From Paraspadella gotoi (lineage: Eukaryota > Animalia > Chaetognatha), in assembly GCA_051294375.1 (NCBI GenBank), contig CM119264.1, positions 15,272,355 through 15,336,354 of the forward strand: a stretch of DNA of 64,000 nt, read 5' to 3'. This document shows positions 8,696 through 57,728 of this stretch, piece after piece. The stretch's first letter is position 1, and each line of letters opens with the position of its first letter. The notes below the pieces were generated by a model. It had not been told where the DNA came from, made no database searches, and worked only from the letters and a program-made list of their open reading frames with translations. The position numbers and the translations under genes are program-made.

Positions 8696-8929
8696 TGAAG
8701 AGACAGTAATTAATGTTATGTGTCAGTGACAAAACCGTTCAATATAAGCAGTCCCTGAGCTTCGGATCAGGCTGTAACACCATGTTACAGGCGGGTTAAG
8801 CGCCCCGTCCCTCTTAACTGCTAGGCGGCCACCGAGCTAAAACCCCGGACCTTTGGGTTGGGAGGCGAATGACTTGCCTCTGGCACCAATGGCCGCTGAT
8901 GAACGGTTGGAGGATTTTAGTCAACCATA
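8696..8929 (-). mobile_element. Solo LTR, family D (TA...CA): 72-nt tRNA-like module (8825-8896) followed by a twister
   Basis: TSD AAAC (8692-95 / 8930-33); acceptor-like stem GCGGCCA/TGGCCGC. Confidence 0.85.
8747..8822 (-). ncRNA. Twister ribozyme, family D (U8798^A8797)
   Basis: AGCAGT(P5)-GAGG-GA-CGG-GGCGCT-TAA-CCC-GCC-TGTAAC/GTTACA(P3)-G-CCTGA-TCCGAAGC-TCAGG-GACTGCT(P5). Confidence 0.8.
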
Positions 8930-14884: not shown

Positions 14885-15826
14885 CAGAAGGCTTCATATT
14901 ATAAAATGAGGTACCCGCATTTTTTGTGACCAGAATCTGTTCCCACCAAACTACCTGATCGAATTTCATGAATTTCAAATTTACATATAATAATTTATAA
15001 TTTACCTGATCGAATTTCATGAATTTCAAATTACATATAGAGTCCTAATGACAATATAAATAGAATTTTGATATTCAACCCCTGACAAGAGATACAGGGC
15101 CCTGGGGGGCCGAAAAAAAAGCTACAAATTTGTTTCCCATTTTTTAGTAGCATTGACGTTTTAAACACATAAAAAACATTTTAGAACTAAAATTGATAAG
15201 TTTTCAATAATTAAGCATGGTTTAAAGATGCATGGTTCATAGTTTTACTTCCAATTTTCCCAAATTATTTCAAATCTGATTTGAACTGCTGATGTTCATG
15301 AAGCTGAAAATTAAGGTAAATTATTATTTTTGTGATAATAAATGTTTTTGTGGAAGTGTAAACATTTATGCAACTTCAGAAAAAAAATTTTGACAATTTT
15401 TTGCCCCTATGGTTGACCCCTCCGGGGGCCCCATATCTCGGCTCAGGGGCCAAATATTGAAATTCTCATAGGGATCGTTCATACCAAATTTTAATAAATT
15501 TGGTCCAGTAGTTTTCTCGGAACGGGTTCTGGTCACAAAAAAGGGGTACTGTGGTGGTATATTCACTCCACCTCACGTCCACAATACCATTGGCTCCGAG
15601 GGGGAACACACTATCCCAGGAGTTGTGTTCCATCCACAGTCCTAACGAATCCCTCTGCGTTGGCAAAGCGAGACCGTCCTAGGGTAACCGCGCCAGTGAC
15701 TGGATGTGTCACTGAGGGTCGGAAGCCCACAAAGCCAACAGTGAGATGCCCTATCCCAATGGGAATCACAGGCAACACAACACGGCTGTTGCCATAGTAC
15801 CTCATTTTATAATATGAAGCCTTCTG
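14885..15826. mobile_element. Tc1/mariner-type MITE forming most of an IGHMBP2 intron
   Basis: TA-CAGAAGGCTTCATATTATAAAATGAGGTAC perfect IR at 14883-14914 / 15797-15828, continuing inward past the inserted LTR. Confidence 0.85.
15550..15796 (+). mobile_element. Solo LTR, family A, inserted in the TIR of a Tc1-type MITE; twister at 15659-15739 (U15685^A15686)
   Basis: TSD GTAC (15546-49 / 15797-800); same twister core with one P4 mismatch. Confidence 0.87.
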
Positions 15827-21907: not shown

Positions 21908-23610
21908 TGTGATTTCCCTGCGATCAACGCCATCTTGAATTCTGTTATCTTAGATTCACAACGTCTCAGCGTCAACGTCAACGGTCACGTGATATTCATC
22001 AAAATCGTTCCCTGAGACCTTGCCACATATATCAGTAATCACAAAAAAATAAGTTTTTATTTATATTAAACAGTAAGGCGTAGTAAAATTTCTAAATTTA
22101 ACTTTAATTAAAATTCTAAAAGTGAAGAACGAACAACATTATACTAATGAACATTTGTAGCCAATCGAGTGTATTATTTCACTTATGGAAATAAAGTCGC
22201 CGCTCCCGGGATCGAACCCGGACTATCTCTGGCGAGATTCCCAGTCATCAGCCAACCAGACCCCTGGAAATCCAACAACTTCGAATTTAACAAAAAGCAT
22301 TTCAAGATCTGATCATTTGTTTTCTTCATCTCCTGAGATGTCAGAATTATTTAAATCTTTAATATTCTTTTGTTTATAGACTGTTTACTTTTTAATTGTT
22401 AACTGAAGATTCTTCAGTCTGGTTTTTATCTCTTGAAGTTAATACATGTTATTAATTATTACTTCACTCGTTTTTAATTACTAATGTGATAAGTACATTA
22501 AGAAGTCTTATAAACAATTCGAATACCGTTTCACGCCTTCCCTGCGACAACATCTCTTAAAGACTCAAACTCTCACTAATGTCGTCTTAGAACCGTGCAA
22601 CGCCAGTGCCACGCCCTCCGTCACGCTGTGGCGCGCCTACAAGGCCTTACCACACTTGGTGAGACTGACGCGAACGAGACCAACCTTCAAACGGGAGAAT
22701 CCAACGGAAATCAACCTCTTCTGAGGTAAGATTGGGTGAGTGAATGGGAAATTGAGTGATCCACCCAATCCGCTCACACTCTATTAATTTTTCTCCCTCT
22801 CTCTCGCGACAACGATTCGACGGAGATAAAGAGAACGGCATCAATGAGTGGCTCCGATTTACGCTCGCGCCTCCGCTCAGCACAACGCGACGCCGACGAC
22901 GAGGCGGCGCGACTTCAGCTTCCAGTCGGTTTTGGACGAGATCATCGATCAAGATCGAACTCACCTCGACTCGCAGAAACAGCGCCTACTTTCGACTATT
23001 AAGCAGCCGGCGACGATCATTTCGAGGACGCCGTCTAACTAACGGATCAGGAACTGGATCTGCGTGATGAGCGAGCGAGCGAGCCTCAAACAGAAAGCCA
23101 GATCTGCCGGACTTCGACTCGAGTAACATCGAGATCTGGATCAAAAGAATCGAAGCGGCTTATACTCGCGCGGGAGTAACCAATCCAAAAAACAAATTTG
23201 CTTACCTCGAGAGTAAGATTAGGATAAACGTTGATCCAAACATTAACCAATATCTTTTTGGCGAAACCAACGAGACGACTTGGAACCAATTTATCGACTA
23301 TCTGAGAAGAGAATATGGCATCACTCGACGACGACAAGCTGCACATCTTGACGCTATCGACGTCGACGGCATTAAGCCGTCGAAGATGTTGGCCCAACTC
23401 GAGGAACGGACCAAAACTCTTACTATAGATGACGTCAAAAAGGAGAAAATCCTCCGCGAGCTTCCTAGCGAAATTCGACGGCAATTGAAAGACAAAGCGG
23501 ACGACCTCTCAGCCAAGGAACTTTGTCAGCTGGCCGATCGACATTATGAGGTCGACGGGACGCTCAAAATTCGCCAATCATCGTCTCTGGTGAATAACGT
23601 CGCCAGTCAA
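21908..23610 (+). mobile_element. 5' part of a Gypsy element: LTR ~21908-22654, PBS TGGTGAGACTGAC, gag remnant
   Basis: TGTG...CACA ends; gag-like LPDFDSSNIEIWIKRIEAAY...KFAYLESK (~23100-23560); it truncates a family E element. Confidence 0.75.
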
Positions 23611-29236: not shown

Positions 29237-29563
29237 TGAAGAGACAGTAATTATTATTATGTGTTAGTGCATTGCCAGGTTGAGGCATGTCGCTTGAATG
29301 TGTTGTTGCTGTTGTTCGGAAGTCGGGCTCACCAACAAAAGAGACAGTAATTATTATTATGTGTTAGTGATAGAACCGTTCAATATAAGCAGTCCCTGAG
29401 CTTCGGATCAGGCTGTAACATCAAGTTACAGGCGAGTTAAGCGCCCCGTCCCTGCTAGGCGGCCACCGGGCTCGAAACCCGGACCTTTGGGTTGGGAGGC
29501 GAATGACTTGCCTCCGACACTAATGGCCGCTGATAAACGGTTGGTGGATTTTAGTCCACCATA
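29237..29563 (-). mobile_element. Family D element: 5' LTR (29337-29563; tRNA-like 29459-29530, twister 29388-29456), PBS, ~50-bp internal remnant and 3' tip of the second LTR
   Basis: TSD GTTC (29233-36 / 29564-67); PBS TGGTGAGCCCGAC (29334-29322) resembles the tRNA-Trp 3' end; T-arm CCGGG-TTTCGAG-CCCGG. Confidence 0.85.
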
Positions 29564-29721: not shown

Positions 29722-30003
29722 GTATAAGGCGATAAGTGGGCAGAAGATGACTATCCGGAATTTCTATAACCCCCTCTAGCAGACATGGAACGGGTCCTGG
29801 GCTTGGAACCAGGCTTGAGGGTTTGCCACGCCCCCAAGGCGGCTTACGGCCGTCCTCACTCTTCCCGCAGGGTAGGTACCGGGTTGGGATTGAACCCGGT
29901 ACCTAGTGGTCATGAGCTGATGGCTTTACTCAATGAGCCACCTGGTCACAACTGAAAGAGTCATGCTTATAGGCGGGGTGAACCTAGGCAATGCCCGACT
30001 ACA
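29722..30003 (-). mobile_element. LTR, family C: A/B boxes (29928-40, 29886-96) followed by a twister (29790-29868, U29846^A29845)
   Basis: GCGGG(P5)-GAGT-GA-GGA-CGGCCG-TAA-GCC-GCC-P3-G-CCTGG-TTCCAAGC-CCAGG-A-CCCGT; left boundary and TSD unresolved. Confidence 0.75.
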
Positions 30004-32149: not shown

Positions 32150-35100
32150 TGTAAAGAGAGGTCGTACGAGCGAGCGACTTGGCGTCATATCGTAAACAAC
32201 GATCATTTGTTTATTGTAGTCAAGGAGTTAAAAATCCTCAGTACTGTTTACGCGACGCCAGGGAGCTCCAGCTTACGGACAGAGGAAAACAAAAAGACAC
32301 TCCCGGATGAAGTCCACCAAGTATGATATTGAGATGAGAAATGATTATTTATTGTTTGCTAATTTACTTTGCTTTGAAGGTCTTTAACACTACAATCCAT
32401 TCTACATTGGCGATTACATCATCAATTACGTTACTGACAGTGGAATATTCATCATAGGGACCTTTTTAGGCTGAGGCGTTAAACAGTACTAAATATTAAA
32501 GACTTGTAAATCTTCAACGGGAAACTAATGAATTAAACTAACTCAACAAACTATTTAATTAAAATAAAAATACGCCGAAGCAACCTGGAACTTGGGAGAC
32601 TTTGGCTTCCGAGAACTGGGTCTAAATAATAACATAACCTTGTTCGCGTTCTAGCTGTGAACCGACTGAGGAGTTTGGAGGAACGCGGGAGCCGCCGATA
32701 AGGGCCCTGCCGGGTGCCAAACATTTTTCACTACTCTCAGGGCCGGGTCTATTGTGACCGGGTCATTAAGTTGGGCACACGGCCGAAGCAGAAGCCTACG
32801 CAACGTGAGTTACAAAAAAAATGCCATCATCGCACGGTGGCGACGATGGAACTTTGGCAAATTTGAAAGGGTTTTTTAATAACACATTAAATCAAAATGA
32901 ACGAGGTGTACGAAGGTTCGTAAAAGAATTACAAAACGAACTAGATAAATTCACAAAGCTTTATGACGATGCCAAAGTTCCGTTGGAGGTTAGGGCGGTC
33001 GAGCGGGTCGAATGGGCTCGCGAGTCTGCCCGGACAATGCACATTGAACTGTCACGTTTTATCACTGTTAACCCTGCACTTGAAACCGATCGTGTTAAGT
33101 CACTGTTAGATGATAATCTTGATTGTTCGGTACGGGCACTTTAAGGGCACGCCCTATATTAGTTGTGGGAGCTGAGAACGCCGCGCCAGTTGACGAGGGA
33201 GTTGAGGATACTGTTGAGGAAAATTTAGATATTGAAGGGTCTGTTCATACTATTGCTGCGTCGTCCGTATCCGCGATCCCCCGTATCACCCCACCTCAAG
33301 TTCTAAACCCCTCGCCGAGGTCACGCCGAGTCTCGCGTCGAGCATTGGGTAGCGACGTCGCCTTCAGTGTACACGTCGCCGAAATCCGCCGCAGGCATCT
33401 CCGCGTATTTGAAGCCATCGAACGCCAGCGTCAGATCGTCGAAGCTGGAGGGCGTCTCGGTAACGAAGTCCACTCGATCGTCTCGCGAGACGATCCGTCA
33501 GAGGTTGGTTCTCGACCTAGAGAGAGTTGAAGATGAGCGTCGTGCATTTGAGGAAGCGAAAGAAAAGAATAAAATTGAGAAAGAGAGAAAAAGAGTAGAA
33601 CGTGAAAGCAGAGAAGAGGAGGAAGCTTTGGAAGCGAAAATTAAGGAGGTCCGTAAGAGAAAAGAGGAAAAAATGAGAGAGGCGGAGAAAAGAGAGAAAG
33701 CGATAGAATTCGAATTTCAACAAAAAGGCTATTGAAATAAGAAAGAAAGAGCAGTAAAAGAGAGATTATCACGAATTAGTGGAGACAAGCTCTGAAGAAG
33801 ACCTGTATTCTTGTAGATCGGAGACGGTGGTCGTACGAGGCGTCCCGTCGGAGCGTCGTGAGTCGCCGAAGCGGACGTCATGTTGAGGAGCGCCCGATCG
33901 TTCGATACGCCGCGTCGAGGAACGCTCCGATCGTCGAACGTCATGATGAGGGAACGCCCGATCGCCGCGACGCACGTTGAAGACTTCGCCGGAAACTACG
34001 GTGCCAAAATCGATCATTACTACGGTGAGGGGAGTGAAAGGAAAGGGAGGAAAGAAAAGAAGAAGGAAGATAATTTAATCAAGCTCATGAGGGACTTACT
34101 TGAGGAAAGAGAGAAGCAGAGAATCGACAGAACATTATTGCCGCCGCCGGCCGGCCCGCGTATTCTTCGCCGCCGTGCGCGCCTCGCCGCCGCCCGTTCC
34201 GTCGCGCCGCGATAATTCCGTCCGTCCGCCTGCCAGTTTTGTCCGAATCGCCGCGTTTTGCCGATCGCGCCGCGGCCGCGGATAGTCCCGCCGGCGCCGC
34301 CCGTCGTAATAAACGCCGCCAGTGGTACCAGCCGTTTCGCCGCCGCGGGTAGTAACGCCACAAATTCATTTGACGCCACCGTTAGTAACGCACATGCAGT
34401 GCACACAGAGCCGTCCCAATCGTCCGTGCCGCTCGTGACGCCGCCATTGCTGTCGCCGCTTGAATTGTAACGAGTTGTTGAGGTTTCGAAGTCGTCGGTC
34501 GATGTACAAGGCTGTTCATGTCGAAGCGAGTCGCGGCCGAATCGCCGCGCCCGTGCGTAGAACCGCTCGAGGAACCAACCAGAAAAGAAAGAATCGATCA
34601 AATCATAGTACCACAGCGAGAGGAAGGCACTCACACAACTATGCATATTACAAAACACAGACAGACCAAGCACTGAGTCTTATAGACAAAGCGTCCAAAG
34701 TTAAAATTTTCCCGGAAGGATCGTCGAGTAGACTTTGAGTCGCAGCTTAAAATTTGTTTGAGTCTACTCGAGTAAAGTCGTCGGTGTCACTGACGAATGG
34801 CTTATGTCAGAGTTGATAAGAATATTGTATCGGTAGACGCGGGCATCCATAGTATCACAACATGAGGCGTCGGGAAACCACACTAAGGCTTTGAAGGAGG
34901 TTTAGTTGGCATTGGAAATAGAATTTGGTCGAAAGAACTTTACAGGCGCAACAAATGTTAGAAGATTGTTAAAGGACCAAAGATTTCTGAGAAAGATTTC
35001 GCCGAATCGAGGACTTTCATTTAGAAATGGAAAAATTCTACAAAAGGGCCATAGAGAAAACCGCGCCGCGACGTTCTCCACAGAGAAACATATATCGAAA

Positions 35101-38100
35101 TCAAAATATCTACAGAAAATTCCGTTCTTGCGAATCCGGTAGCAAAGAGGATACGAAGCATGAGTTTGTCGATATTGAAGAGTGAAAATCGAAGAAGGAG
35201 ATCTTGAAGTTGAAGTTCGATGAGTTCCTGGAGATAGTGAAGGAAGTGACGAGATCAAAGGAAACTATGGGAATCTTGAGTGAAGCAAAGTTCGTCGTCG
35301 TCGTCGCAGCCGAAAAGTCGTACGGAGTGAACAACTCCCTAGCGCGAGGACTTACGGAGAAGTCCGTAAGAACCATGTTTCTGTTCGTGCAGCCGCAGCC
35401 ACTCTTAGCTAGAAGGCGACAGTCCGCCGCCAATCGAAGCTTTTCCAATCCCAATTCTGACCCTACAATCACGCTCGCAAGAGGACAAGGCAAATCAAAG
35501 TGTGACTTTTGTGAAAAAGCTCACTTGGTCACAGGGGTTTGGTTCAAAATTCCTGAGTTGACGATTGACGAGAGGGTGAGCTGGATGAACAGAGAAAGGT
35601 TTGTGTCGACCTTTGTTCGGGCGAGGACACATTGCAAGGGACTGTTCCAATCTTATGGTAGGAGTCTACGTCGTTCTTAGAATCGAGGAAGATTTTTTGG
35701 AAGATTTTCGTTTAAAATCTGATACCAACTATGTCAACGGCCCTGGGAAAAATTCGGGTAAAAAAATAGATGTAAAAACACTTCGATTCCGATCCTGTTC
35801 ATCTGAAGGCTTCGCATTTTTTTTCTCTTGACAAATAACCATCATTTTGACATCGAACTATTCGATTCATGGACTGGTCGCGCTCGGAAAATATTTTTGA
35901 CCAGCAATTTTTATATATAAAATTAAAGGGATTTCTCACTTCAATACAATGTCAACGGCATTTAAGGTATGTTGTCATCTTTACAATAAATCGAATCAGG
36001 AAGTCCGATAGCATATGTCTGAAGGGTCTCAAATTTTTCTTTACATTTTATGGTTAATTTAATATGATACGATCATGGTAAATGAATTAGTCCATTTTGG
36101 TGAAATTTTTATTTACAAGTAAAAGTAAAAGAGGAGCTAACGATCGGAAATTCTAGAGTTTTCAACGGAGTCAGATTGGAAAAAATCTTATATGGCGAAA
36201 ATCTTCCAAAGAAGGGGTGGATTTCCAAAGATTTTGGTTAATATTTCTTATTTATGGTCGGATTTTTTTTAAACTTAAAAATAACAATATTGCCATCATT
36301 CTACATTGGCGCGACAAGAATATATAAAAAAAACCTAGACTTTTTTTCGTCAGAGATTAGTCCTACTTATGGGCTGCCAAACGTGGCGGTCAAAGGCATC
36401 ACGCATCCATTCACAGAGAGGAGTCGAATCAGGAACAGAGTTCTTCTTGACTAGCTGCAGCGTACGTGACGACAGGAGCATTTCGACCGATAGTTCCAGT
36501 CGTCGTGAAAAGCGGACATAGGTCGGTCGTTACGTACGCTTTATTAGATAGCGGCGCTACCCGTTCAGCCATGTCATGAAATTAGCGAGAGAATTAGATT
36601 TAGCAACGTACGCAGAATATACAAATTTAACAACTTATGACAAAGTGTCAAGAACCTGGGAGATTATGGTGACATCGAATTGACGAATTTAGAAAATACG
36701 TTTTCAACCGAAATAAGAAAAGTTATGGTAGGAGAGATATTAACGACAGAGACAGACCGACCGACTCGAAACGAAGAAATCGAAGATTATCAGTACATGA
36801 AAGGAGTTGAGTTTATCGAATTGGAAGATGACTCGGTCGAAATGATACTCGACGCGAGATTGGCACATACTTGGGTCGGAGGTGAGACGAGAAAAGGACC
36901 TGAAGGTTTATCCTGTTGCGCTGAAGACAGTGTTCGGGTGGACATTAGTGGGAGCGAGTGAAAACGAAAGCGGGGAAACACATTAGTTGCTGTTCAACGA
37001 CACATGAGCATGAGAAGTTGGAGTATTTGATTGCATCGATGTTTCGTTCATGACTTTTTGATGAGAGGAACTGAGAATATCCGTCTGAGGTGCAGATCTC
37101 CGTCGGCTGAAACAGTTTATGCTTTAGAGCAGCTGGAGAACGAGATTTATTTTAACGAAAAGACCGGTCATTACGTAGCGCCGTCGCCGTGGAAAAAGGA
37201 AGGGAAAAGACTGCCGAGTTTCTCGAAACGATTAAAGACGAGGTGGTGAAAAACGCGGAGAGGCAGAGCGAGGAAGTTGGCGAACAAGATGCGGAAGGAT
37301 CCGTTGCTGAAGGAGGGGGTGTTCCGAACGATGGAGGAGACGATCGAATTGGGCCATGCGAGAAAGGCCGTAGTGGAGCATCCGCCGCCGGGTCCAGCCG
37401 GAATGTTTCGCACCGTTGCTCGTCGTCACGAGAGCGGACAAGCCGGGCAAGTTCAGAATTGTCAAGATGCAGCATCGAGAGTGAATGGGAATGCGCTGAA
37501 TGATCACTTGATTGGAGGGCCGGACAACCTCACTCCGTTAATTGGTATGTTGCTGAAGTTCCGCAGAAAGAGATATACGATTTCCGCAACATCAAGGGGT
37601 TCTTCCATCAAGTCGATTACATCCAAAAGACGTAGCAGCCTTTAGATTACCACTGGTATACAGACAAATCGATGCAGACGTGGAGGTTCACGAGCCGCTG
37701 GTACACGTGTTCGGGGGGAGCGGGCAGTCCAGGGGTCGCGACGTTCGTGCTGCAGTATCACGGGAAAGAAGCTGAGTTTCACTGGAGAATTTTCACCAGA
37801 AGTGATCATCGCGGTTTTTCCTCAAAGTTTATGTGGATGATTATCTCGACGCGCTTGGACGGCATTAAAGAAGCTAGAAAGATTGCGGTTGAGACATGAC
37901 GGAGGCGATGAAGAGAGCGGGTTCGAGCTCACAAAGTGGCAAGCTTCACATCCTCAAATCCTGGTGGACGATCCAGAAGGAGATGAAGAAGAAGATGAAA
38001 CGGCGAACGAAGCAGTTGACGGGGGGTTGGAGGAAGAACTGGAGGATAATCTCGAGGGCTTTGGCCGGGGAATGCAATGCCGGAGGATCCGTCGCTCGAT

Positions 38101-40406
38101 GAACATGATTCTAAAGTTTTGGGAACGGGATACAATTCGAAACGTGATGTTTTCTTGTACGAGTAACAGACAAAGCAGAGAAGAGGCGAAGACGAAGGGA
38201 AAGTCTTGAGCTGGTCGCGTCGGTCTTCGATCCGCTGGGGTTGGTTGGCCGCCGTTCGTGTTGAAAGGGCGAGAATCATATCCAAAAGATATGATGGAAA
38301 GGGCTGGACTGGGACGACAAGTTGCCTGAAGAGTTGTTCGAGGCGTTTGACAAGTGGCGAAATAGAAAATGTGCTTTCTGAAAAGATTAGAATTCCACGG
38401 TGGACGAGCATCTTGATTGGAATGTGTGAAGGACCATGTTGATCGTGTTTTGTGATGCAAGTTACGAAGGTTATGGAGTGGCTATTTACATAAAGAAGGA
38501 GAATAAAGACGGGAGAAAAACAGTCACGTGACATTACTTTTTGCTAACAGCTCACGTAGTACCAGTAAGATGGCAAGAAAAAAATTATAGTGGAGGACCA
38601 ACTTGATCATGGAAGATTCAATGCCAAGACTGGAACTGAACGCGGCAAGATTGGCGGCGCAGACTCGAGACACAATGATAAGAGAAGCGGGTGGAAGAAT
38701 TTGACGAAATTCACATGACGGATTCGATCACAGTAATTCGATGGAATAAGAGACTGGAAGAAACGTTTTAAAACATATGAAAATTTCGATTGAAAACCAT
38801 TTCGACTCCTCTCGAACCAAGTTGAATGGAAATATGTACCATCTCAGAAAACCCAGCCGATTTGACAAGTCGTGGTAGATGCTGATGATGCTGAAAGCTG
38901 GAAAAAGTTTTCACAAAGGACCAGAATGGCTTCGCCGAAAAGAGGAAAGACTGGCCGAGCCACAAACGATTTGACAGTATGAAGAAAAAGAAAGAAGTAA
39001 ATGTGGAATATCAGCGCAATTCATGACGATAGTGAATTTTAGTCCGATGGAATTTAATTTTTTGCCATTCTACCTAGAGAGTATCCGAAAAAAGATGAGA
39101 ACATGAAAAAAGAGGATTGGGTGCTGAAAGTGACGGAAAAAATTAGTATGTGGGTGAAGAAGGTGAAAAGAATTGTTTACTTTGCAAAAGCAGTGAAGAG
39201 ATTGATCGAAAATAGAATTCGAAAGAAGAAAGGAGAAAACGATAGAGAAAAAAGAAATGAGAATGACGGGAGACGAATATAAGAGAGCAGAGTTAAAATT
39301 GATCAAAGCAATTCAAAGAAAAAATTCGAAAAGAAATATTGAATTAATAAAGTTGGGAGTCATGACAGCCGAATTCGCACAGAGAATTGAGAAGTAGAAA
39401 TTCGAGAAATTGTCGCTATGAGTCCGTTCGTCGACGAGGAGGTTTGATGAGGACTGGAGGAGGTTGGGGAACTCGAAAGGGTTATCATATGACGCTAAAC
39501 ATCCATAATATTACCAAAGGATGACGAGAATGTCGACTCACTGATTCGCCATGAACATATCACATTATTCCATTCTGGTGCATGTGCAACATTCCATTCA
39601 CTGAGACAAAGATTTACCTTGTTGGGAGGGAGGCCAGCAGTGGAAAGATCTTCCGCCGGTGTTTGAAGTGTCAGAGAAACTTGAAGGTTCCAACGCCGCA
39701 AAAGATGGCTGAACATCCAGAGTTCCGTGTAAACGAAGCAATTCCATTGAGATAACTGGACTTGATTGTTTTGGTCCGATACCAGTGAAACATGCTGGGC
39801 GGGGTCTGAACAAAAAGAATGTAGTAATATTCACATGTTTAAACTACTCGAGCGGTAGCCTTTGAAATACTAAAGGACATGACATCGCAATCAAATGCTC
39901 AGCGCGCTAAATTAGATTTAAAAATGTTTACCCAGGTGTACGCACATTCATCTCGGACAACGGTACAAATCTCGTAGGAGCGAGCAACGAGATCGAGAAG
40001 CAATTGCATCATCTCCAAAGCAACGAAAAACTTCACGAAATCGCCGCCAAAGGTATTACCTGGACCTTCGGACCGCCAAACGCTCCGCATTGGGGAGGAG
40101 CATGGGAAAGGTTTGATCCGTGAGACAAAAAAGCATATCAACGCCGTCATCCCATCAGAGTTAGACGTCGACACATTCGCAACGATCCTAAGTGAAATAT
40201 CAGGTATTATGAATCGACGCCATTAACATTCGAATCTTCCGATCCAAAAAGCGATATTGCACTATCTCCAGCAAATTTTCTGTATCCATATTTATTTACA
40301 TCGACATCAACAGCGAGCGTGGCGGTCAGTGAAGACCTGCCTTCTATTGTGCGCGGCGAGCGCTCATACCATGGAGCAGCGGCCAGAAGCGATCTCTCTG
40401 GTGGTG
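32150..40406 (+). mobile_element. BEL/Pao LTR retrotransposon, heavily frameshifted, 3' end lost in the gap
   Basis: Gag from 32821; protease YALLDSGA (~36535); RT LNDHLIGGPDNL and FYVDDYL (~37830); RNase H VFDPLGWL, FCDAS, MPRLEL, NPADLTSRG; integrase GLDCFGP, SDNGTN, APHWGGAWE. Confidence 0.93.
35659..36365 (+). mobile_element. Family B element nested in the BEL/Pao element
   Basis: 7-bp TSD CTTATGG. Confidence 0.88.
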
Positions 40407-40506: not shown

Positions 40507-41205
40507 TTGTTTAATTCTCCCCTTTTAACTTATCCCATACCGTGTTGTAACTTTTTACCTATAATTTTTGAACAAACAGATTGAAAAACAAATCTTTAAA
40601 AAATGTGCTTACCCATTTAACTTAACAATTTTGTTATTTACCCATTTAAAAAAAATTATTGAAAACAGAATGAACACAAATAAATAAGAACTTATTTCTT
40701 TGTGATTACTGATGACTATAATGTATTTCTCGATATATTAGCTCTAACACATCAATGATTACGTATTGTTATGCTGAATGACCTTTCCTCTTAAGATAAC
40801 GCAAAATGATGCGGTTTTTTAAGATTTAACAAGAATAATAACTAGTCCAACTAATTACACTTTAAAAATAAATAAATCTAAAGTCGAAATGAAAAATAAA
40901 CTACAATCACAAAAAATCACAAATTCAAAGACATCTTAGAAATTGTTTTTAAAGAAAACGCATGAAGCTTATTTCTTTATATTACAGATATAATTAGCTC
41001 ATCATGTGGGGAATATTTTGCATTAGTTTCAATTAATTTAAAGAATGTTCAGTTAGTTTAAAATGATGAAATAAAAAAATGCCATTTTTTGACTAACCAT
41101 TTTAAAAAATTCATTGCAGACAAACGGTGAATCATTAACAAAAATGCTTCTACTATGGCAACAGCCGGGTTGCCTGTGATGCCCATTGGGATGGGGCATC
41201 TCACT

Positions 41206-41286
41206 GTTGGCTTTGGGGGCTTCCGACCCTCAGTGATGCCTCTAGTCACTGGCGCGGTTACCCTAGGACGGTCTCGCTTTGCCAAC
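41206..41286 (-). ncRNA. Twister ribozyme in the 3' LTR of the TRIM (U41260^A41259)
   Basis: Reverse complement of the 48991-49071 core, with GA-CCG, TAA and TCGGAAGC intact. Confidence 0.78.
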
Positions 41287-41689
41287 GCAGAGGGAAGTCG
41301 TTAGGACTGTGGATGGAACACTACGCCTCGGATGGTGTGTTCCCCTCTGAGCCAATGTATTTGGCTGAAGGATGGTGGACGTGAGGCGGTGTGAATATAC
41401 CGCCACAGGATCCCCGGGCCAAGACATCACTCAGGTTCCTCAAGCCTGAGAGGTGTCTGCAAGACTGTTACCATAGTGGGAGAGAGAGAAGAGAGCGTGA
41501 GTTGTGGGGGCATAGGCGTTTGTCGTAGCGTACCCCAGGGCATAGGCGTTTGTCATAGCGTACCCGAAGTCGGCAGGGCATAGGCGTTTGTCGTAGCGTA
41601 CCCTGAAAGGTTGCATGTCGATAGTAGGGCTCACCACTTATGGCAACAGCCGGGTTGCCTGTGATACCATTGGGATGGGGCATCTCACT

Positions 41690-41769
41690 GTTGGCTTTGG
41701 GGCTTCCGACCCTCAGTGATGCTCCAGTCACTGGCGCGGTTACCCCTAGGACGGTCTCGCTTTGCCAAC
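41690..41769 (-). ncRNA. Twister ribozyme in the 5' LTR of the TRIM (U41742^A41741)
   Basis: Same core; small homopolymer indels in P1 and P4. Confidence 0.72.
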
Positions 41770-41886
41770 ACAGAGGGAAGTCGTTAGGACTGTGGATGGA
41801 ACACTACGCCTGGATGGTGTGTTCCCCCTTGAGCCAATGTATTTGGCTGAAGGATGGTGGACGTGAGGCGGTGTGAATATACCGCA

Positions 41887-42609
41887 TAGGACTCTAACGT
41901 CGTCTTAGGATGAGGAAGACTTTTTCAATGGAGATTTTTGTTATAAATCTGACTACCACAATAATGTCAACGCCCCTGGGAAAAAATTTCAGGTAAAAAT
42001 AGATGTTAAAACATCAGATCCGATCCTGTTATGCATTCTGAAGGGCTCGCATTTTTGTTTCTCTTGACAAATAAAACCATCATTTGACATCGTGAACCAT
42101 TCAATCAAAGATGGATGTCGCTCGGGTGAAAATATTTTTGACGCAATTTTTATATATAAAATAAGAGGATTTCTCACTCAATACAATGTCCAAACGCACT
42201 TTAAGGTTATGTTGTCATTTTACAATAAACTTCGAATTCAGAATCGATAGCAATATGTCCTGAAGGTTCAAATTTTTCTTTACATTTCATTTGGTTATTT
42301 AATATGGATACGATCATGTTAAAGTGAATTAGTCTCCATTTTGGGTGAAATTTTATTTAAAAGTACAAGTTAAAAGAGAGTAAAGCGATCGAATTCTAAG
42401 AGTTTTTCAACGCGGGTAATTCGGAAAAAATCTTATATGGCGAAATCTTCCAAAGAAGGGTGGATTTCCGAAGATTTTGGTTAATGTTTTCTATATTATG
42501 GTCGGATTTTTTTGAAACTTAAAAAATAGCATTATTGCATCATTCTACATTGGGCCGGTCAAAAGATATCATTAAAAAACTCTGATTTTTTGTCAGGAGC
42601 TTAGTCCTA
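41887..42609 (+). mobile_element. Family B element nested in a family A LTR
   Basis: TSD ACCGC(C)A. Confidence 0.85.
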
Positions 42610-44948: not shown

Positions 44949-45205
44949 TGTGGCAGCAAGACTTAAAGCTGCCTCACTGCTGTCCGTCCTCAGCCTCGTC
45001 TCAATGGCTGAGCAGGCTAAATCATCTCATTCCATCCGTGCGTCCCGGGTTCAATCCCTGGGTATCCCGGTTCTGGCTTAAATGTGACGGTGCCGGTATA
45101 AACATGCCAGTGACAGGAGGCGGTCACTGAGGGTCCGCAGCCCCTACGCCAGTTAGTGAGATACCCCGCGTCCCGGGTATCACAGGCTATCCTCCCGTTG
45201 CCATA
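44949..45205 (+). mobile_element. Solo LTR, divergent subfamily A', with intact Pol III A-box (45005-16) and B-box (45048-58)
   Basis: TGTGGC...GCCATA; TSD GTAG/ATAG; TGGCTGAGCAGG and GGTTCAATCCC. Confidence 0.82.
45073..45152 (+). ncRNA. Twister ribozyme, subfamily A' (U45099^A45100)
   Basis: CTGGC-..-ATGT-GA-CGG-TGCCGGTA-TAA-ACAT-GC-P3-A-GGG-TCCGCAGC-CCC-..-GCCAG; perfect 4-bp P2; pseudoknot flipped relative to family A; one conserved loop A is C. Confidence 0.78.
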
Positions 45206-48868: not shown

Positions 48869-49123
48869 TGTGGCGGTATATTCACACCGCCTCACGTCCA
48901 CCATCCGTCAGCCAAATCCATTGGCTCAGAGGGGGAACACACCATCCCAGGCGTAGTGTTCCATCTACAGTCCTAACGACTTCCCTCTGCGTTGGCAAAG
49001 CGAGACCGTCCTAGGGTAACCGCGCCAGTGACTGGAGGCGTCACTGAGGGTCGGAAGCCCCCAAAGCCAACAGTGAGATGCCCCATCCCAATGGGCATCA
49101 CAGGCAACCCGGCTGTTGCCATA
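48869..49123 (+). mobile_element. Solo LTR, family A (TG...TA ends), carrying a twister fold
   Basis: TGTGGC...GCCATA flanked by TSD ATGC (48865-68 / 49124-27). Confidence 0.88.
48991..49071 (+). ncRNA. Twister ribozyme, P5-type permutation; predicted cleavage U49017^A49018
   Basis: GTTGGC(P5)-GCGA-GA-CCG-TCCTAGGG(P1)-TAA-CCGC-GC-CAGTGAC/GTCACTG(P3)-A-GGG-TCGGAAGC-CCC-GCCAAC(P5); loop CGG pairs with CCG. Confidence 0.8.
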
Positions 49124-50374: not shown

Positions 50375-51905
50375 TGTGGATAAGGCGCTACACTATCATC
50401 GAAGTTAACGTTAAAATCGGAAAAATTATACTTATGGGATATTCAGATAGCTTATCCAGAATAATTCTTGAAAACTTCAGAGGTTCTTCTCATAAATTCT
50501 TAATATTTTCAAAAAGGACAAAAATGTTTCATATAATTTTTTTACGATTCCTAAAGATGAACCAAACGCTATGCACAGTTTTTTTAGCTTTCTTTAAATA
50601 TTTTTGCCTTACAAATACGGTAAGACTGAAGTTTTAAAGAGAAAATTTGAATTAATAAATTAAGCTGGGAAGTTTATAATACTAACGTGGATTTAACGAG
50701 TAAATTATTTTATTATCAAGTAAACAATTAATGAAAAACATTTTGATTTTCTGAATAAGGAGGTATCGGAATAGAGTTTCAGTAAAATAATAAATGAGTT
50801 TACATTATATAGTTTTTGTCATTTTCGTTACCAAAAAACGTTTTAAATTTTTCTTAAATGGGAAGGTTGATCTTTAAAGCCCGTAATTTTAAAATTAAAA
50901 AAAAAAATAAATAAAATTTTTTTTTCAATGTCTATTTGTTCTATCACAAATCCCATCGTGAGTTCAATGGTTTGCCTCATTTGCCCGATCCATTTCCCGT
51001 TCATTCCTCGATCCTTAGCACTACTCTGTCTTTCTCAATGAATGGTTGCTCTTTTTATTGTTTCTATTCTTTTATTTTTAAATTACAATACATAACTGAC
51101 AATTACATAGGTCGTTGTTGTGGTTCATCAGTTGAAAATTGCTCTTAAAAATGAAATTTACTTTATAAACTAGTCTTATCGAATTGGTGTAAAATAAATA
51201 ATTTTGAAAATCATTTTGGTAATTACTTATGAAGCGGAACTTTGCGGAAGATCTCCCGAATATATCATGTGCGTTATAAAATCAATCAAATTAAATAAGA
51301 ATGATCATGTTTCCACATGTTTTCATATAGTTTTTTAGCTAATTTTTGATACAGTAAAACATTTTTTGAATAATTTTTAATTCATCCATGCTATATATTC
51401 AGTTATTTACTAAGATTTTAAAAAAATTTAAAATGTATCAAGTTCCAAGAATATAGCTCGACAAAGTGAGTCAAAAATAAGGAAAACCCCATATGTCCAG
51501 AAAAACTGATTTTTGAAAACTGATATTACACGAGAGGTTTTTTATGATACTTCTTCAAAGATTAAAAGCATTAATATTATTGTATGATGTACTACCCTTT
51601 TTCCGACTTTAGATGCTAAATCGATGATAGCGCGCTAAGTGGGCTGAAGATGACTATCCGTAACTTCTTTAACCCCCTCTAGCAGCTATGGAACGGGTCC
51701 TGGGCTTGGAACCAGGCTTGAGGGTTTTCCACGCCCCCAAGGTGGCTTACGGCCGTCCTCACACTTCCTGCAGGGTATATACCGGGTTAGGATTGAACCC
51801 AGTGCCTAGTGGTCATGAGCTGATGGCTTTACTCAATGAGCCACCGGGTCACGACTGAAGGGGTCATGCTTAGAGGAGGGGTGAACTTTGCTATGCCCGA
51901 CTACA
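50375..51905 (-). mobile_element. Solo LTR, family C (TG...CA), split by a Transib insertion; twister at 51693-51771 with a G>A change in the 2-bp pseudoknot
   Basis: TSD GATC (50371-74 / 51906-09); closely matches 29722-30003 once 50391-51637 is removed. Confidence 0.82.
50391..51632. mobile_element. Transib-like non-autonomous element, second family
   Basis: CACTATCATCGA...TCGATGATAGCG; 5-bp TSD CGCTA; shares the subterminal TCGGAAAAAGGGTRGTACATCATA with 27541-28831. Confidence 0.83.
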
Positions 51906-56798: not shown

Positions 56799-57728
56799 TC
56801 AGAGCCCAGACGATGGTATTGTCTTGCATATGCTTGTCTTTGAGGTTGGAGTTGTTGGTACACCGAATCTGGGGATCCAGTTCTGAAGGAAGGCTGTTGC
56901 TACAGTTGCTGCGGAGATATCCCAGAGGGGAAATGTGTCAGGCCAATGAGTAAAACAGTCTACACAGGTTAGAAGGTATGTGTAACGGCATGAGGTGGGC
57001 AAGGGACCCACTTAAGTCAGTGAGAACATGTTCGAAACGCCTCGACGGTGCTTCAAAAGGTAGTGGAGCCTGGGTGTGTCATTGTACCTTGCTGCGCTGG
57101 CAGTCAAGGCAGGCCTGAGCCCATTTTGCCGCGTCTTTGTTGTGGATGGCATCATAAATTTGACTGCGCCAAGTTGTGGGAACCAAGGGGCGCACCCTGC
57201 CTGAACTGACATCGCAGATGTCAAAGTCTTTCAGGTGAACTATCTTGAATCGCAGGCTGGTTTGGGCGTCCGCCAGGAGTCACTAGATCTCCTCGTCGGA
57301 ACTCTTCACCGGCAAGACTTACCATAGTAGGAGAGAAAGAGCGCGAGTTGTGGGGGCATAGGCGTTTGTCATAGAATACCCCAGGGGCATAGGCGTTTGT
57401 CGTAGCATACCCAAAATCGGCAGGGCATAGGCATTTGTTGTAGCATACCCTGAAAAGGTTGCATGTTCGATAGCAGGGCTCACCACTTATGGCAACAGCC
57501 GGGTTGCCTGTGATGCCCATTGGGATGGGGCATCTGTTGGCTTTGGGGGCTTCCGACCCTCATTGACGCCTTCAGGCACTGGCGCGGTTACCCGAGGATG
57601 GCTTTGGCTTTGCCAACGCAGAGGGAAGTCATTAGGACTGTGGATGGAACACAATGCCTGGGATGGTGTATTCCCTCTCTGAGCCAATGGTATTGGCTGA
57701 ACCATGGTAGATGTGAGGCGGTGTGAAT
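56799..57728 (-). mobile_element. Deleted Gypsy element: family A LTR (57488-57728), PBS, TRIM-type internal repeats and an integrase remnant
   Basis: CDVSSGRVRPLVP...WAQACLDCQRSKV...RRFEHV and GPLP...YLLTCVDCFTHWPDTFPL...FLQNWIPRFGVP; twister catalytic GA is mutated. Confidence 0.85.

Follow-up and report, generated by a model that had tools for sequence, protein, structure and literature searches.

A P5-permuted twister fold with a self-complementary word in place of P1 in LTR units of the chaetognath Paraspadella gotoi, and its possible cleavage as a dimer

Reports on helix P1 of twister ribozymes include a review according to which P1-less twisters cleave at almost the wild-type rate (PMC5408937), a description of P1 as dispensable with SHAPE data showing that it breathes (PMC6101554), and a study that calls cleavage by P1-less twisters inefficient (PMC8501958). 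Such constructs leave the case described here unsettled, because they have free ends and not a 6-8-nt tether. Among other self-cleaving RNAs, the axolotl hammerhead has one pair and a palindromic tetraloop at the cut, and is described as weak as a monomer and efficient as a dimer (PMC7229834), and the hatchet ribozyme is described as forming a palindrome-driven swapped dimer that is as active as the monomer and not needed for activity (PMC6561176). LTR retrozymes are presented as hammerhead-bearing and mainly of plants in a preprint of July 2026 (10.64898/2026.07.22.740005), and the LTR model given for CsRN1 elements includes AATAAA (PMC3601003). Here we describe twister folds with a self-complementary word in the position of P1; all positive evidence for them comes from one window, the 64-kb stretch of Paraspadella gotoi DNA (64,000 nt) analyzed as a whole.

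A twister fold and its copies in the window

The motif at 48991..49071 (+) has a twister fold, which a reading of the sequence and a descriptor assign to the P5-permuted form with P3, in the segment order of type P5. From 5' to 3', the stretch comprises a P5 strand, a P2 strand, GA, three T1 bases, an 8-nt word and TAA, followed by the second P2 strand, GC, a 7-bp P3 hairpin, a P4 hairpin with the loop TCGGAAGC and the P5 partner. The strands of P5 (48991-48996/49066-49071) coincide exactly with the outer ends assigned in the preliminary description. Inside them lie, all on the plus strand, P2 (49000-49003/49020-49023, with a C-A mismatch at the core end), the catalytic GA (49004-49005), T1 (49006-49008/49052-49054), the self-complementary word in the P1 slot (49009..49016), T2 (49024-49025/49057-49058), P3 (49026-49032/49040-49046) and P4 (49048-49050/49059-49061); the twister consensus, as given in PMC8501958, predicts cleavage at the U/A step between 49017 and 49018. 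The assignment draws on sequence, descriptor, pair counts and a weak partial Rfam twister-P1 match.

Descriptor scans and blastn revealed ten copies in four families within the window (five A, one A', two D and two C). A P5 of 5-7 bp encloses the fold, in the type-P5 layout with P1 closed on one strand. The U/AA strand, the catalytic GA and an L4 with an AGC end were present in 9/10 copies; the decayed A copy at 57.6 kb has lost the catalytic GA, and in the A' copy a C replaces the first L4 adenine. T1 was CCG/CGG in A, CGG/CCG in A' and D, and GGA/TCC in C, and T2 was GC/GC in 8/9 intact copies. P4 had 3-5 bp across the copies and 2 bp in the one with its word at 15677. P2 consisted of 4 bp in A', 3 bp plus the C-A mismatch in A and 2-3 bp in C and D; the mismatch lies beside the catalytic G in 4/4 intact family A copies, and the weak 3-nt P2 strand of C and D is likewise found in the phage loci L236 and L238, which Rfam scores as Twister-P5.

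T1, P2, P3 and P4 were compensated across families, with differing letters and maintained pairing. Between A and A', both sides had changed in 5/26 pairs, and in none of six slid controls; with four related sequences, this comparison is descriptive and statistically weak. As DNA, only A and A' could be aligned (78% over 106 nt); matches between any other two LTRs were short and local at most, and copies inside one family were 87-97% alike. A covariance model built from three A copies and A' recovered the remaining A copies as well as the two of family D (E 6e-4 and 0.095), and gave no match to family C. The P4/L4 and T1 letters of A, A' and D are common to bacterial twisters scored by Rfam.

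Rfam itself returned no match at gathering level in the 64-kb window and no twister at E up to 1, the matches up to that value being four chance matches of microRNA type. When a 151-nt stretch was submitted alone, a partial twister-P1 match was obtained (15 bits, E 0.86) that covers P3 and P4, and RF02684, whose score threshold is 37.6 bits, gave no match at E up to 10. Since Rfam misses the motif, more motifs of this kind are likely hidden in animal genomes. Judged by their sequence, these folds are likely to self-cleave at the U/A step.

Self-complementary words in the P1 slot

The words between GA-NNN and TAA, all located as in the preliminary description, were TCCTAGGG (A), TGCCGGTA (A'), GGCGCT (D) and CGGCCG (C), and the replacement of P1 by a 6-8-nt near-palindrome proved correct in 4/4 families. 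In family A, TCCTAGGG occurs at 49009-49016(+), 15677(+) and 41268(-), and a form with one extra G, TCCTAGGGG, at 41751(-); the decayed copy (57536-57617, -) has the broken word TCCTCGGG. The A' word lies at 45091(+), the D word at 29445(-) and 8804(-), and the C word at 29852(-) and 51755(-). With G-U pairs allowed at outer positions, 8/10 copies were fully self-pairing, the exceptions being the copy with the extra G and the broken one.

The central tetramers (CTAG, CCGG, GCGC and GGCC) all differ, and all four are Watson-Crick palindromes. The central two bases were self-complementary in every family, in three states (UA, CG, CG and GC), and the change from UA in A to CG in A' is compensated, though these bases are neighbors on one strand. 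Each word occupies exactly the P1 slot, beginning directly after T1 and ending directly before U-1, and its outermost positions pair in 4/4 families. With random draws at the composition of each LTR, and the four families taken as independent, the chance of palindromy in all of them was 3.7e-8 unconditionally, 1.6e-5 with selection limited to the pairs lying outside a tetraloop, and 3.9e-3 if a stem closing a 2-nt loop was granted. The symmetry of the words is therefore beyond chance. Only the comparison between families (n = 4, one window) is informative on conservation, because the copies within a family are too alike. A protein site at the DNA level was considered for the word and rejected by inference, because symmetry rather than sequence is conserved.

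Energies were calculated with a nearest-neighbor model from which both pseudoknots were omitted. An intramolecular P1 within the core cost +1.0 to +4.0 kcal/mol relative to the open loop in 4/4 families, whereas the strand-swapped dimer, which is nested, lay 11.7-16.3 kcal/mol below two monomer cores, so that in this model the intramolecular P1 is disfavored and the swapped dimer favored. The duplex of each word with its own second copy amounted to -8.3 to -10.9 kcal/mol. The earlier statement that a hairpin would need a 2-nt loop was wrong, as a tetraloop plus one pair (C and D) or two pairs (A and A') can be drawn, though these hairpins are unstable. The stable intramolecular P1 hairpin of type-P5 twisters was thus not found; at four phage loci scored by Rfam as Twister-P5, the P1 hairpins span 20-30 nt, and P1 in the Rfam consensus is 8 bp long. 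In unconstrained co-folding, the palindrome duplex appeared for A' and C and did not appear for A or D. The minimum-energy folds of the monomers differed from the active fold in all four families, and in that of the two-LTR RNA the two words were not paired.

LTR units and their genomic setting

The units that house the copies measure 234-282 nt, and their cut sites lie 125-159 nt in from the start. The fold at 48991..49071 lies in a solo LTR of family A (48869..49123, +; 255 nt) with TGT...ATA ends and an ATGC target duplication, placed antisense in a host intron. A further solo LTR of this family (15550..15796, +; ribozyme 15659-15739) has a GTAC target duplication. A two-LTR element of family A (41154..41888, -) carries ribozymes at 41690-41769 and 41206-41286 and a primer-binding site (PBS) at 41636; its LTRs are identical at 242 of 248 aligned bases with 9 gap positions, its internal part measures about 220 nt, the distance from cut site to cut site is 482 nt, and no clean target duplication was found in its flanks. 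This small non-coding element, with a ribozyme in both LTRs, has the layout of an LTR retrozyme. The decayed ribozyme (57536-57617, -) belongs to a 5'-truncated LTR of family A (57488..57728, -), which is followed by a PBS at 57485 and, about 210 nt behind it, by co-oriented, broken remnants of a Gypsy-type integrase (56802..57279, -). Pfam matched these remnants to Integrase_H2C2 at E 0.01 and to rve at E 4e-4, neither of which reaches the cut-off, and they have 65% identity to the integrase-core protein P0001; the intervening stretch of about 210 nt is partly common to the small two-LTR element. Since this LTR runs into co-oriented integrase remnants, a protein-coding element is the likely origin of family A, with recombination between elements as a possible alternative.

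The A' copy (ribozyme 45073-45153, word TGCCGGTA) is in a solo LTR (44949..45205, +) with TGT...ATA ends and the flanks GTAG/ATAG. Family D is represented by a solo LTR (8696..8929, -) with a GTTT target duplication and a ribozyme at 8744-8822 with the word GGCGCT, and by an element at 29237..29563 (-) with a GAAC target duplication that consists of an LTR, a PBS at 29334, a short internal piece and a 34-nt 3' LTR tail; the P5 of its ribozyme (29389-29463) has a deletion. The two family C copies lie in an LTR-like unit with TGT...ATA ends (29723..30003, -; ribozyme 29790-29868, word CGGCCG), at which no clean target duplication and no adjoining PBS were found, and in a second unit (51627..51905, -; ribozyme 51693-51771) with a T2 mismatch. 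Family C is provisionally filed as an LTR by size, ends and layout.

Unit ends were TGT...ATA in A, A' and C, and TAT...TCA in D. An exact 4-bp target duplication was present at 4/8 insertions checked, with 3/4 bases in one or two more; among these eight, none was found at the two-LTR element or at the family C unit ending at 30003. A tRNA-Trp-type PBS, TGGTGAG/CCCC (TGGTGAGCCC), lies behind two A LTRs and one D LTR, and none was seen beside the A' or C copies, which are solo. The poly(A) signal A(A/T)TAAA was absent from 10/10 LTR units. With reference to the A/B-box consensus, a B-box/T-loop-like motif (GGTTCRANYCC, 0-1 mismatch) occurs 39-51 nt upstream of the cut in A', C and one D copy, at 45048(+), 29886(-), 51789(-) and 29468(-), and is absent in A; each occurrence has a null P of 0.02-0.05, and the 13 occurrences in the whole window do not exceed chance. 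In A, A' and D, A-box-like words lie about 45 nt further upstream; a T4 run is missing from the two-LTR element. These sequence features hint at a possible tRNA-type internal promoter in the LTRs. The predicted 482-nt circle is 55% paired, below the 70% cited for metazoan retrozymes. Behind the family A PBS, there are three 30-38-nt repeats (41492-41608 and 57338-57455, both -), each with a similar predicted hairpin and a ACGACAAACG-type loop, and these predicted hairpins may form a packaging or protein-binding array.

Eight of the ten copies are housed in an apparently intact IGHMBP2-like helicase gene on the minus strand (12003-55554, beginning beyond 55.5 kb) with open exon frames and repeat-filled introns; its product has AAA_12, R3H and zf-AN1 domains and best matches of 56-58%, to a hemichordate and an annelid. 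Five of the eight intronic copies (4/7 insertions), including the two-LTR element, are on the sense strand of the gene.

Other elements were observed in the same window. A Gypsy-type remnant (22530-23600, +) has TGGTGAGAC at 22657 as a related PBS, and one of its frames is Gag-like by a match to DUF7041 below cut-off (E 7.5e-4); neither descriptor nor model found a twister upstream of it, and therefore either not every such LTR has one or this LTR is truncated. A tRNA-like stretch with a perfect B box (22200-22270, -), undetected by ARAGORN, is perhaps a SINE head. A GC-richer, broken element at 33000-38500 (+) matched no Pfam family in the four frames tried, and its frames recall Bel/Pao retrotransposons. 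The hammerhead core pattern was absent from the twister LTRs; elsewhere in the window, minimal cores like those of type I hammerheads (CTGANGA...GAAA) were found at 807(+), 20075(+), 3371(-) and about 9085(-), followed by a short near-palindrome such as ACATGT. We take these cores to resemble those of Penelope-like elements, and from their sequence the P. gotoi genome seems to hold dimer-type hammerheads as well.

Pairing between copies, alternatives and known systems

Since the fold has a self-complementary word for P1, it probably cuts best when two copies pair, and such pairing is the simplest reading of the symmetry. The best reading of the whole is a dimer-assisted twister that would trim the RNA of an LTR element, comparable, among twisters, to double hammerheads and to plant LTR retrozymes. 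The proposal that a P5-permuted twister with a palindromic P1 pairs between copies with a strand swap and cuts once per LTR is, in our judgment, somewhat favored over its negation. Transcription through the element would give an RNA with one ribozyme per LTR, provided that it starts upstream of P5 and reads through the 3' LTR. Each core would be assembled from the 5' half of one fold and the 3' half of the other, and the words would form a P1 duplex shared between the two cores; with both active sites completed, both U/A steps would be cut, releasing unit-length RNA (482 nt for the small element). The partner most easily met would be the second LTR on the transcript itself or another, co-packaged genome, and a lone copy would cut more slowly rather than not at all. 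A host ligase could then close the cut-to-cut RNA to a circle, a step proposed for retrozymes in PMC7761336 and PMC7229834, and the tRNA primer site could serve to start its reverse transcription, on the model put forward for plant LTR retrozymes. One benefit may be that a circle or a solo LTR would not be quickly re-cut, because it has only one copy.

Several observations argue for dimer assistance: the absence of A(A/T)TAAA from 10/10 units, set against the CsRN1 LTR models with AATAAA (PMC3601003); palindromy in 4/4 families with different letters, together with modeled energies that disfavor the hairpin and favor the swapped dimer; and, by analogy, the long P1 of the phage Twister-P5 loci and of the Rfam consensus, along with the hammerhead precedent. 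Against it stand the reported dispensability of P1, the weak P2, the A and D co-folds and the two-LTR fold without word pairing, the failure of the A/A' model to match C, and the lack of any family member found outside the window. A further objection is that a two-LTR element predicted to cut is tolerated in sense orientation within a helicase gene whose frames are open: tolerated sense copies in introns fit slow monomers and misfit an active two-LTR element, unless cutting in the intron is harmless or the copies are blocked. The twister fold, the LTR location and a P1 symmetry kept with changed letters are in line with the dimer ribozyme of the preliminary description, and the strand swap agrees with a nested dimer favored by 11.7-16.3 kcal/mol. 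The dimer as obligate is unsupported, because P1 is reported dispensable (PMC5408937, PMC6101554) and the hatchet dimer is described as unneeded (PMC6561176), and so is cleavage of two-LTR transcripts only. We likewise regard as doubtful a stricter scheme, in which a strictly dimer-gated twister sits in autonomous CsRn1-type Gypsy LTRs, it acts as a counting switch for which both LTRs or two co-packaged genomes must meet, polyadenylation and terminal redundancy are replaced by cutting and circularization, and an animal LTR lineage is copied from circular RNA, possibly with a tRNA-type internal promoter.

Alternatively, the ribozyme may cut as a monomer, with the palindrome kept as a signal by which two genomes dimerize or are packaged, since after a cut in the 3' LTR the word would stand at the very 3' end of the RNA. 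Retroviral dimer-initiation palindromes are a familiar likeness for such a signal. This account explains the palindromy and is compatible with a dispensable P1, the word duplex of -8.3 to -10.9 kcal/mol would suffice at high local concentration, and the hatchet product is described as dimerizing via a palindrome that catalysis does not need (PMC6561176). However, the exact filling of the P1 slot, with outermost positions pairing in 4/4 families, is what a shared P1 needs and not what a terminal signal needs, and the hatchet palindrome is described as non-conserved (PMC6561176), so that we consider this account unlikely.

A monomeric twister with a minimal P1 hairpin of one or two pairs, closed by a tetraloop with pairing end bases, would make palindromy a by-product; the 6-nt linker could, by P1 geometry, be closed as one pair and a tetraloop, P1 may breathe (PMC6101554), and the four families, from one window, perhaps have a common ancestor. 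The self-complementary central two bases in 4/4 families, at a chance of 3.9e-3 even if a 2-nt loop is granted, and the unfavorable hairpin energies make this quite improbable. A twister-derived fold that is non-cutting or blocked, and that serves the LTR as an RNA structure or pairing element, would accord with the Rfam result (a 15-bit partial match and nothing at gathering level), with the weak P2 and the monomer minimum-energy folds unlike the active fold in four families, and with tolerated sense copies in introns. It is very unlikely in view of the catalytic G, the next A, U/AA, both pseudoknots and L4, which all four families retain, only A and A' among them aligning as DNA; the 3-nt P2 strand also occurs in the Rfam-scored twisters L236 and L238.

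Searches in other sequence collections gave no further member of these families. The A-type pattern yielded 96 loci in viral contigs, of which 3 passed the descriptor and none was like these families; the D-type pattern yielded 4 loci, none passing. In 33/64 parts of the metagenomes, 118 loci were found and 12 passed, and the 4 of these 12 run on Rfam had no match; the A/A' model, run on 100 of the 118 loci, gave 5 matches, all from one bacterial P1-type twister family. GTDB genomes yielded 12 loci, with one P1-type twister and no P5 type with a short P1, and integrase queries found no relative in viral contigs. The seemingly palindromic linkers of the tandem phage twisters L225 (132-231), L237 and L239 were rejected, being two P1-type units in tandem. 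Two Lachnospiraceae loci, L247 and L251, contain twister-like words in P5 order with an 8-nt, AT-rich, non-palindromic linker; they are probably not twisters, because they have no Rfam match and a poor P4; if they were twisters after all, they would speak against a dependence on the palindrome.

If the dimer-assisted reading is true, twisters have converged on the dimer-dependent, palindromic mini-helix design of hammerheads, the conservation of a supposedly dispensable P1 has a reason as a control point, and LTR-borne ribozymes extend from plant non-autonomous elements to an animal Gypsy clade. Replication of LTR elements through circles would then become testable with 80-nt RNAs, and fast cleavage under the control of a 6-8-nt word would lend itself to use as an RNA switch.

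The type-P5 twister, as described in PMC5408937 (RF02684), has the same segment order, catalytic GA, U/AA, T1/T2, P2, P4 and optional P3 and P5; it differs in having an 8-bp P1 hairpin where the present folds, which lie in animal LTRs and are not scored by RF02684, have a 6-8-nt palindrome. In the Perere-3 T-variant twisters of Schistosoma (PMC8501958), an animal retrotransposon also carries a twister with an irregular P1, but these are of P1 type, lie at the 5' end of a non-LTR element and have P1 completed by the target site, and the consulted text of that study describes no palindrome or dimer. According to PMC2582038, the CsRn1 clade of Ty3/Gypsy elements (PwRn1, AgCR) has the PBS TGGTGAGCCC found here behind two A LTRs and one D LTR, TGT...ATA ends, which occur here in A, A' and C, and a 4-bp duplication, which is exact here at 4/8 insertions checked. 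The units described here differ in having an LTR ribozyme and no AATAAA; a ribozyme is unmentioned in the text of PMC2582038 available to us. Plant LTR retrozymes, as described in PMC4918200 and PMC7761336, likewise have one ribozyme per LTR, a 4-bp duplication as at part of the insertions here, a Gypsy-type PBS, many solo LTRs and small non-coding two-LTR elements. The present units differ from them in having a twister instead of a type III hammerhead, an animal host, a tRNA-Trp-type instead of a tRNA-Met PBS and one copy joined to integrase remnants, and their circles are only predicted. In the dimer-cleaving type I hammerheads of newt and axolotl retrozymes and Penelope-like elements (PMC7229834, PMC6765202), the helix at the cut is also described as one or two pairs with a palindromic tetraloop that can be shared as a duplex, and the reported axolotl geometry is that of families C and D (PMC7229834); ribozyme class and helix are different, helix III being needed and twister P1 reported as dispensable, and their hosts are non-LTR elements. 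The palindromic minimal helix at the cut, a trait of dimer-cleaving ribozymes, is present in the folds described here. Among the titles and first abstract lines listed by full-text searches, none reported a dimeric or palindromic-P1 twister or an LTR twister, though such sequences may be present in the alignments that supplement Roth 2014; a palindrome-gated dimer design, known for hammerheads, did not turn up for twisters in this literature.
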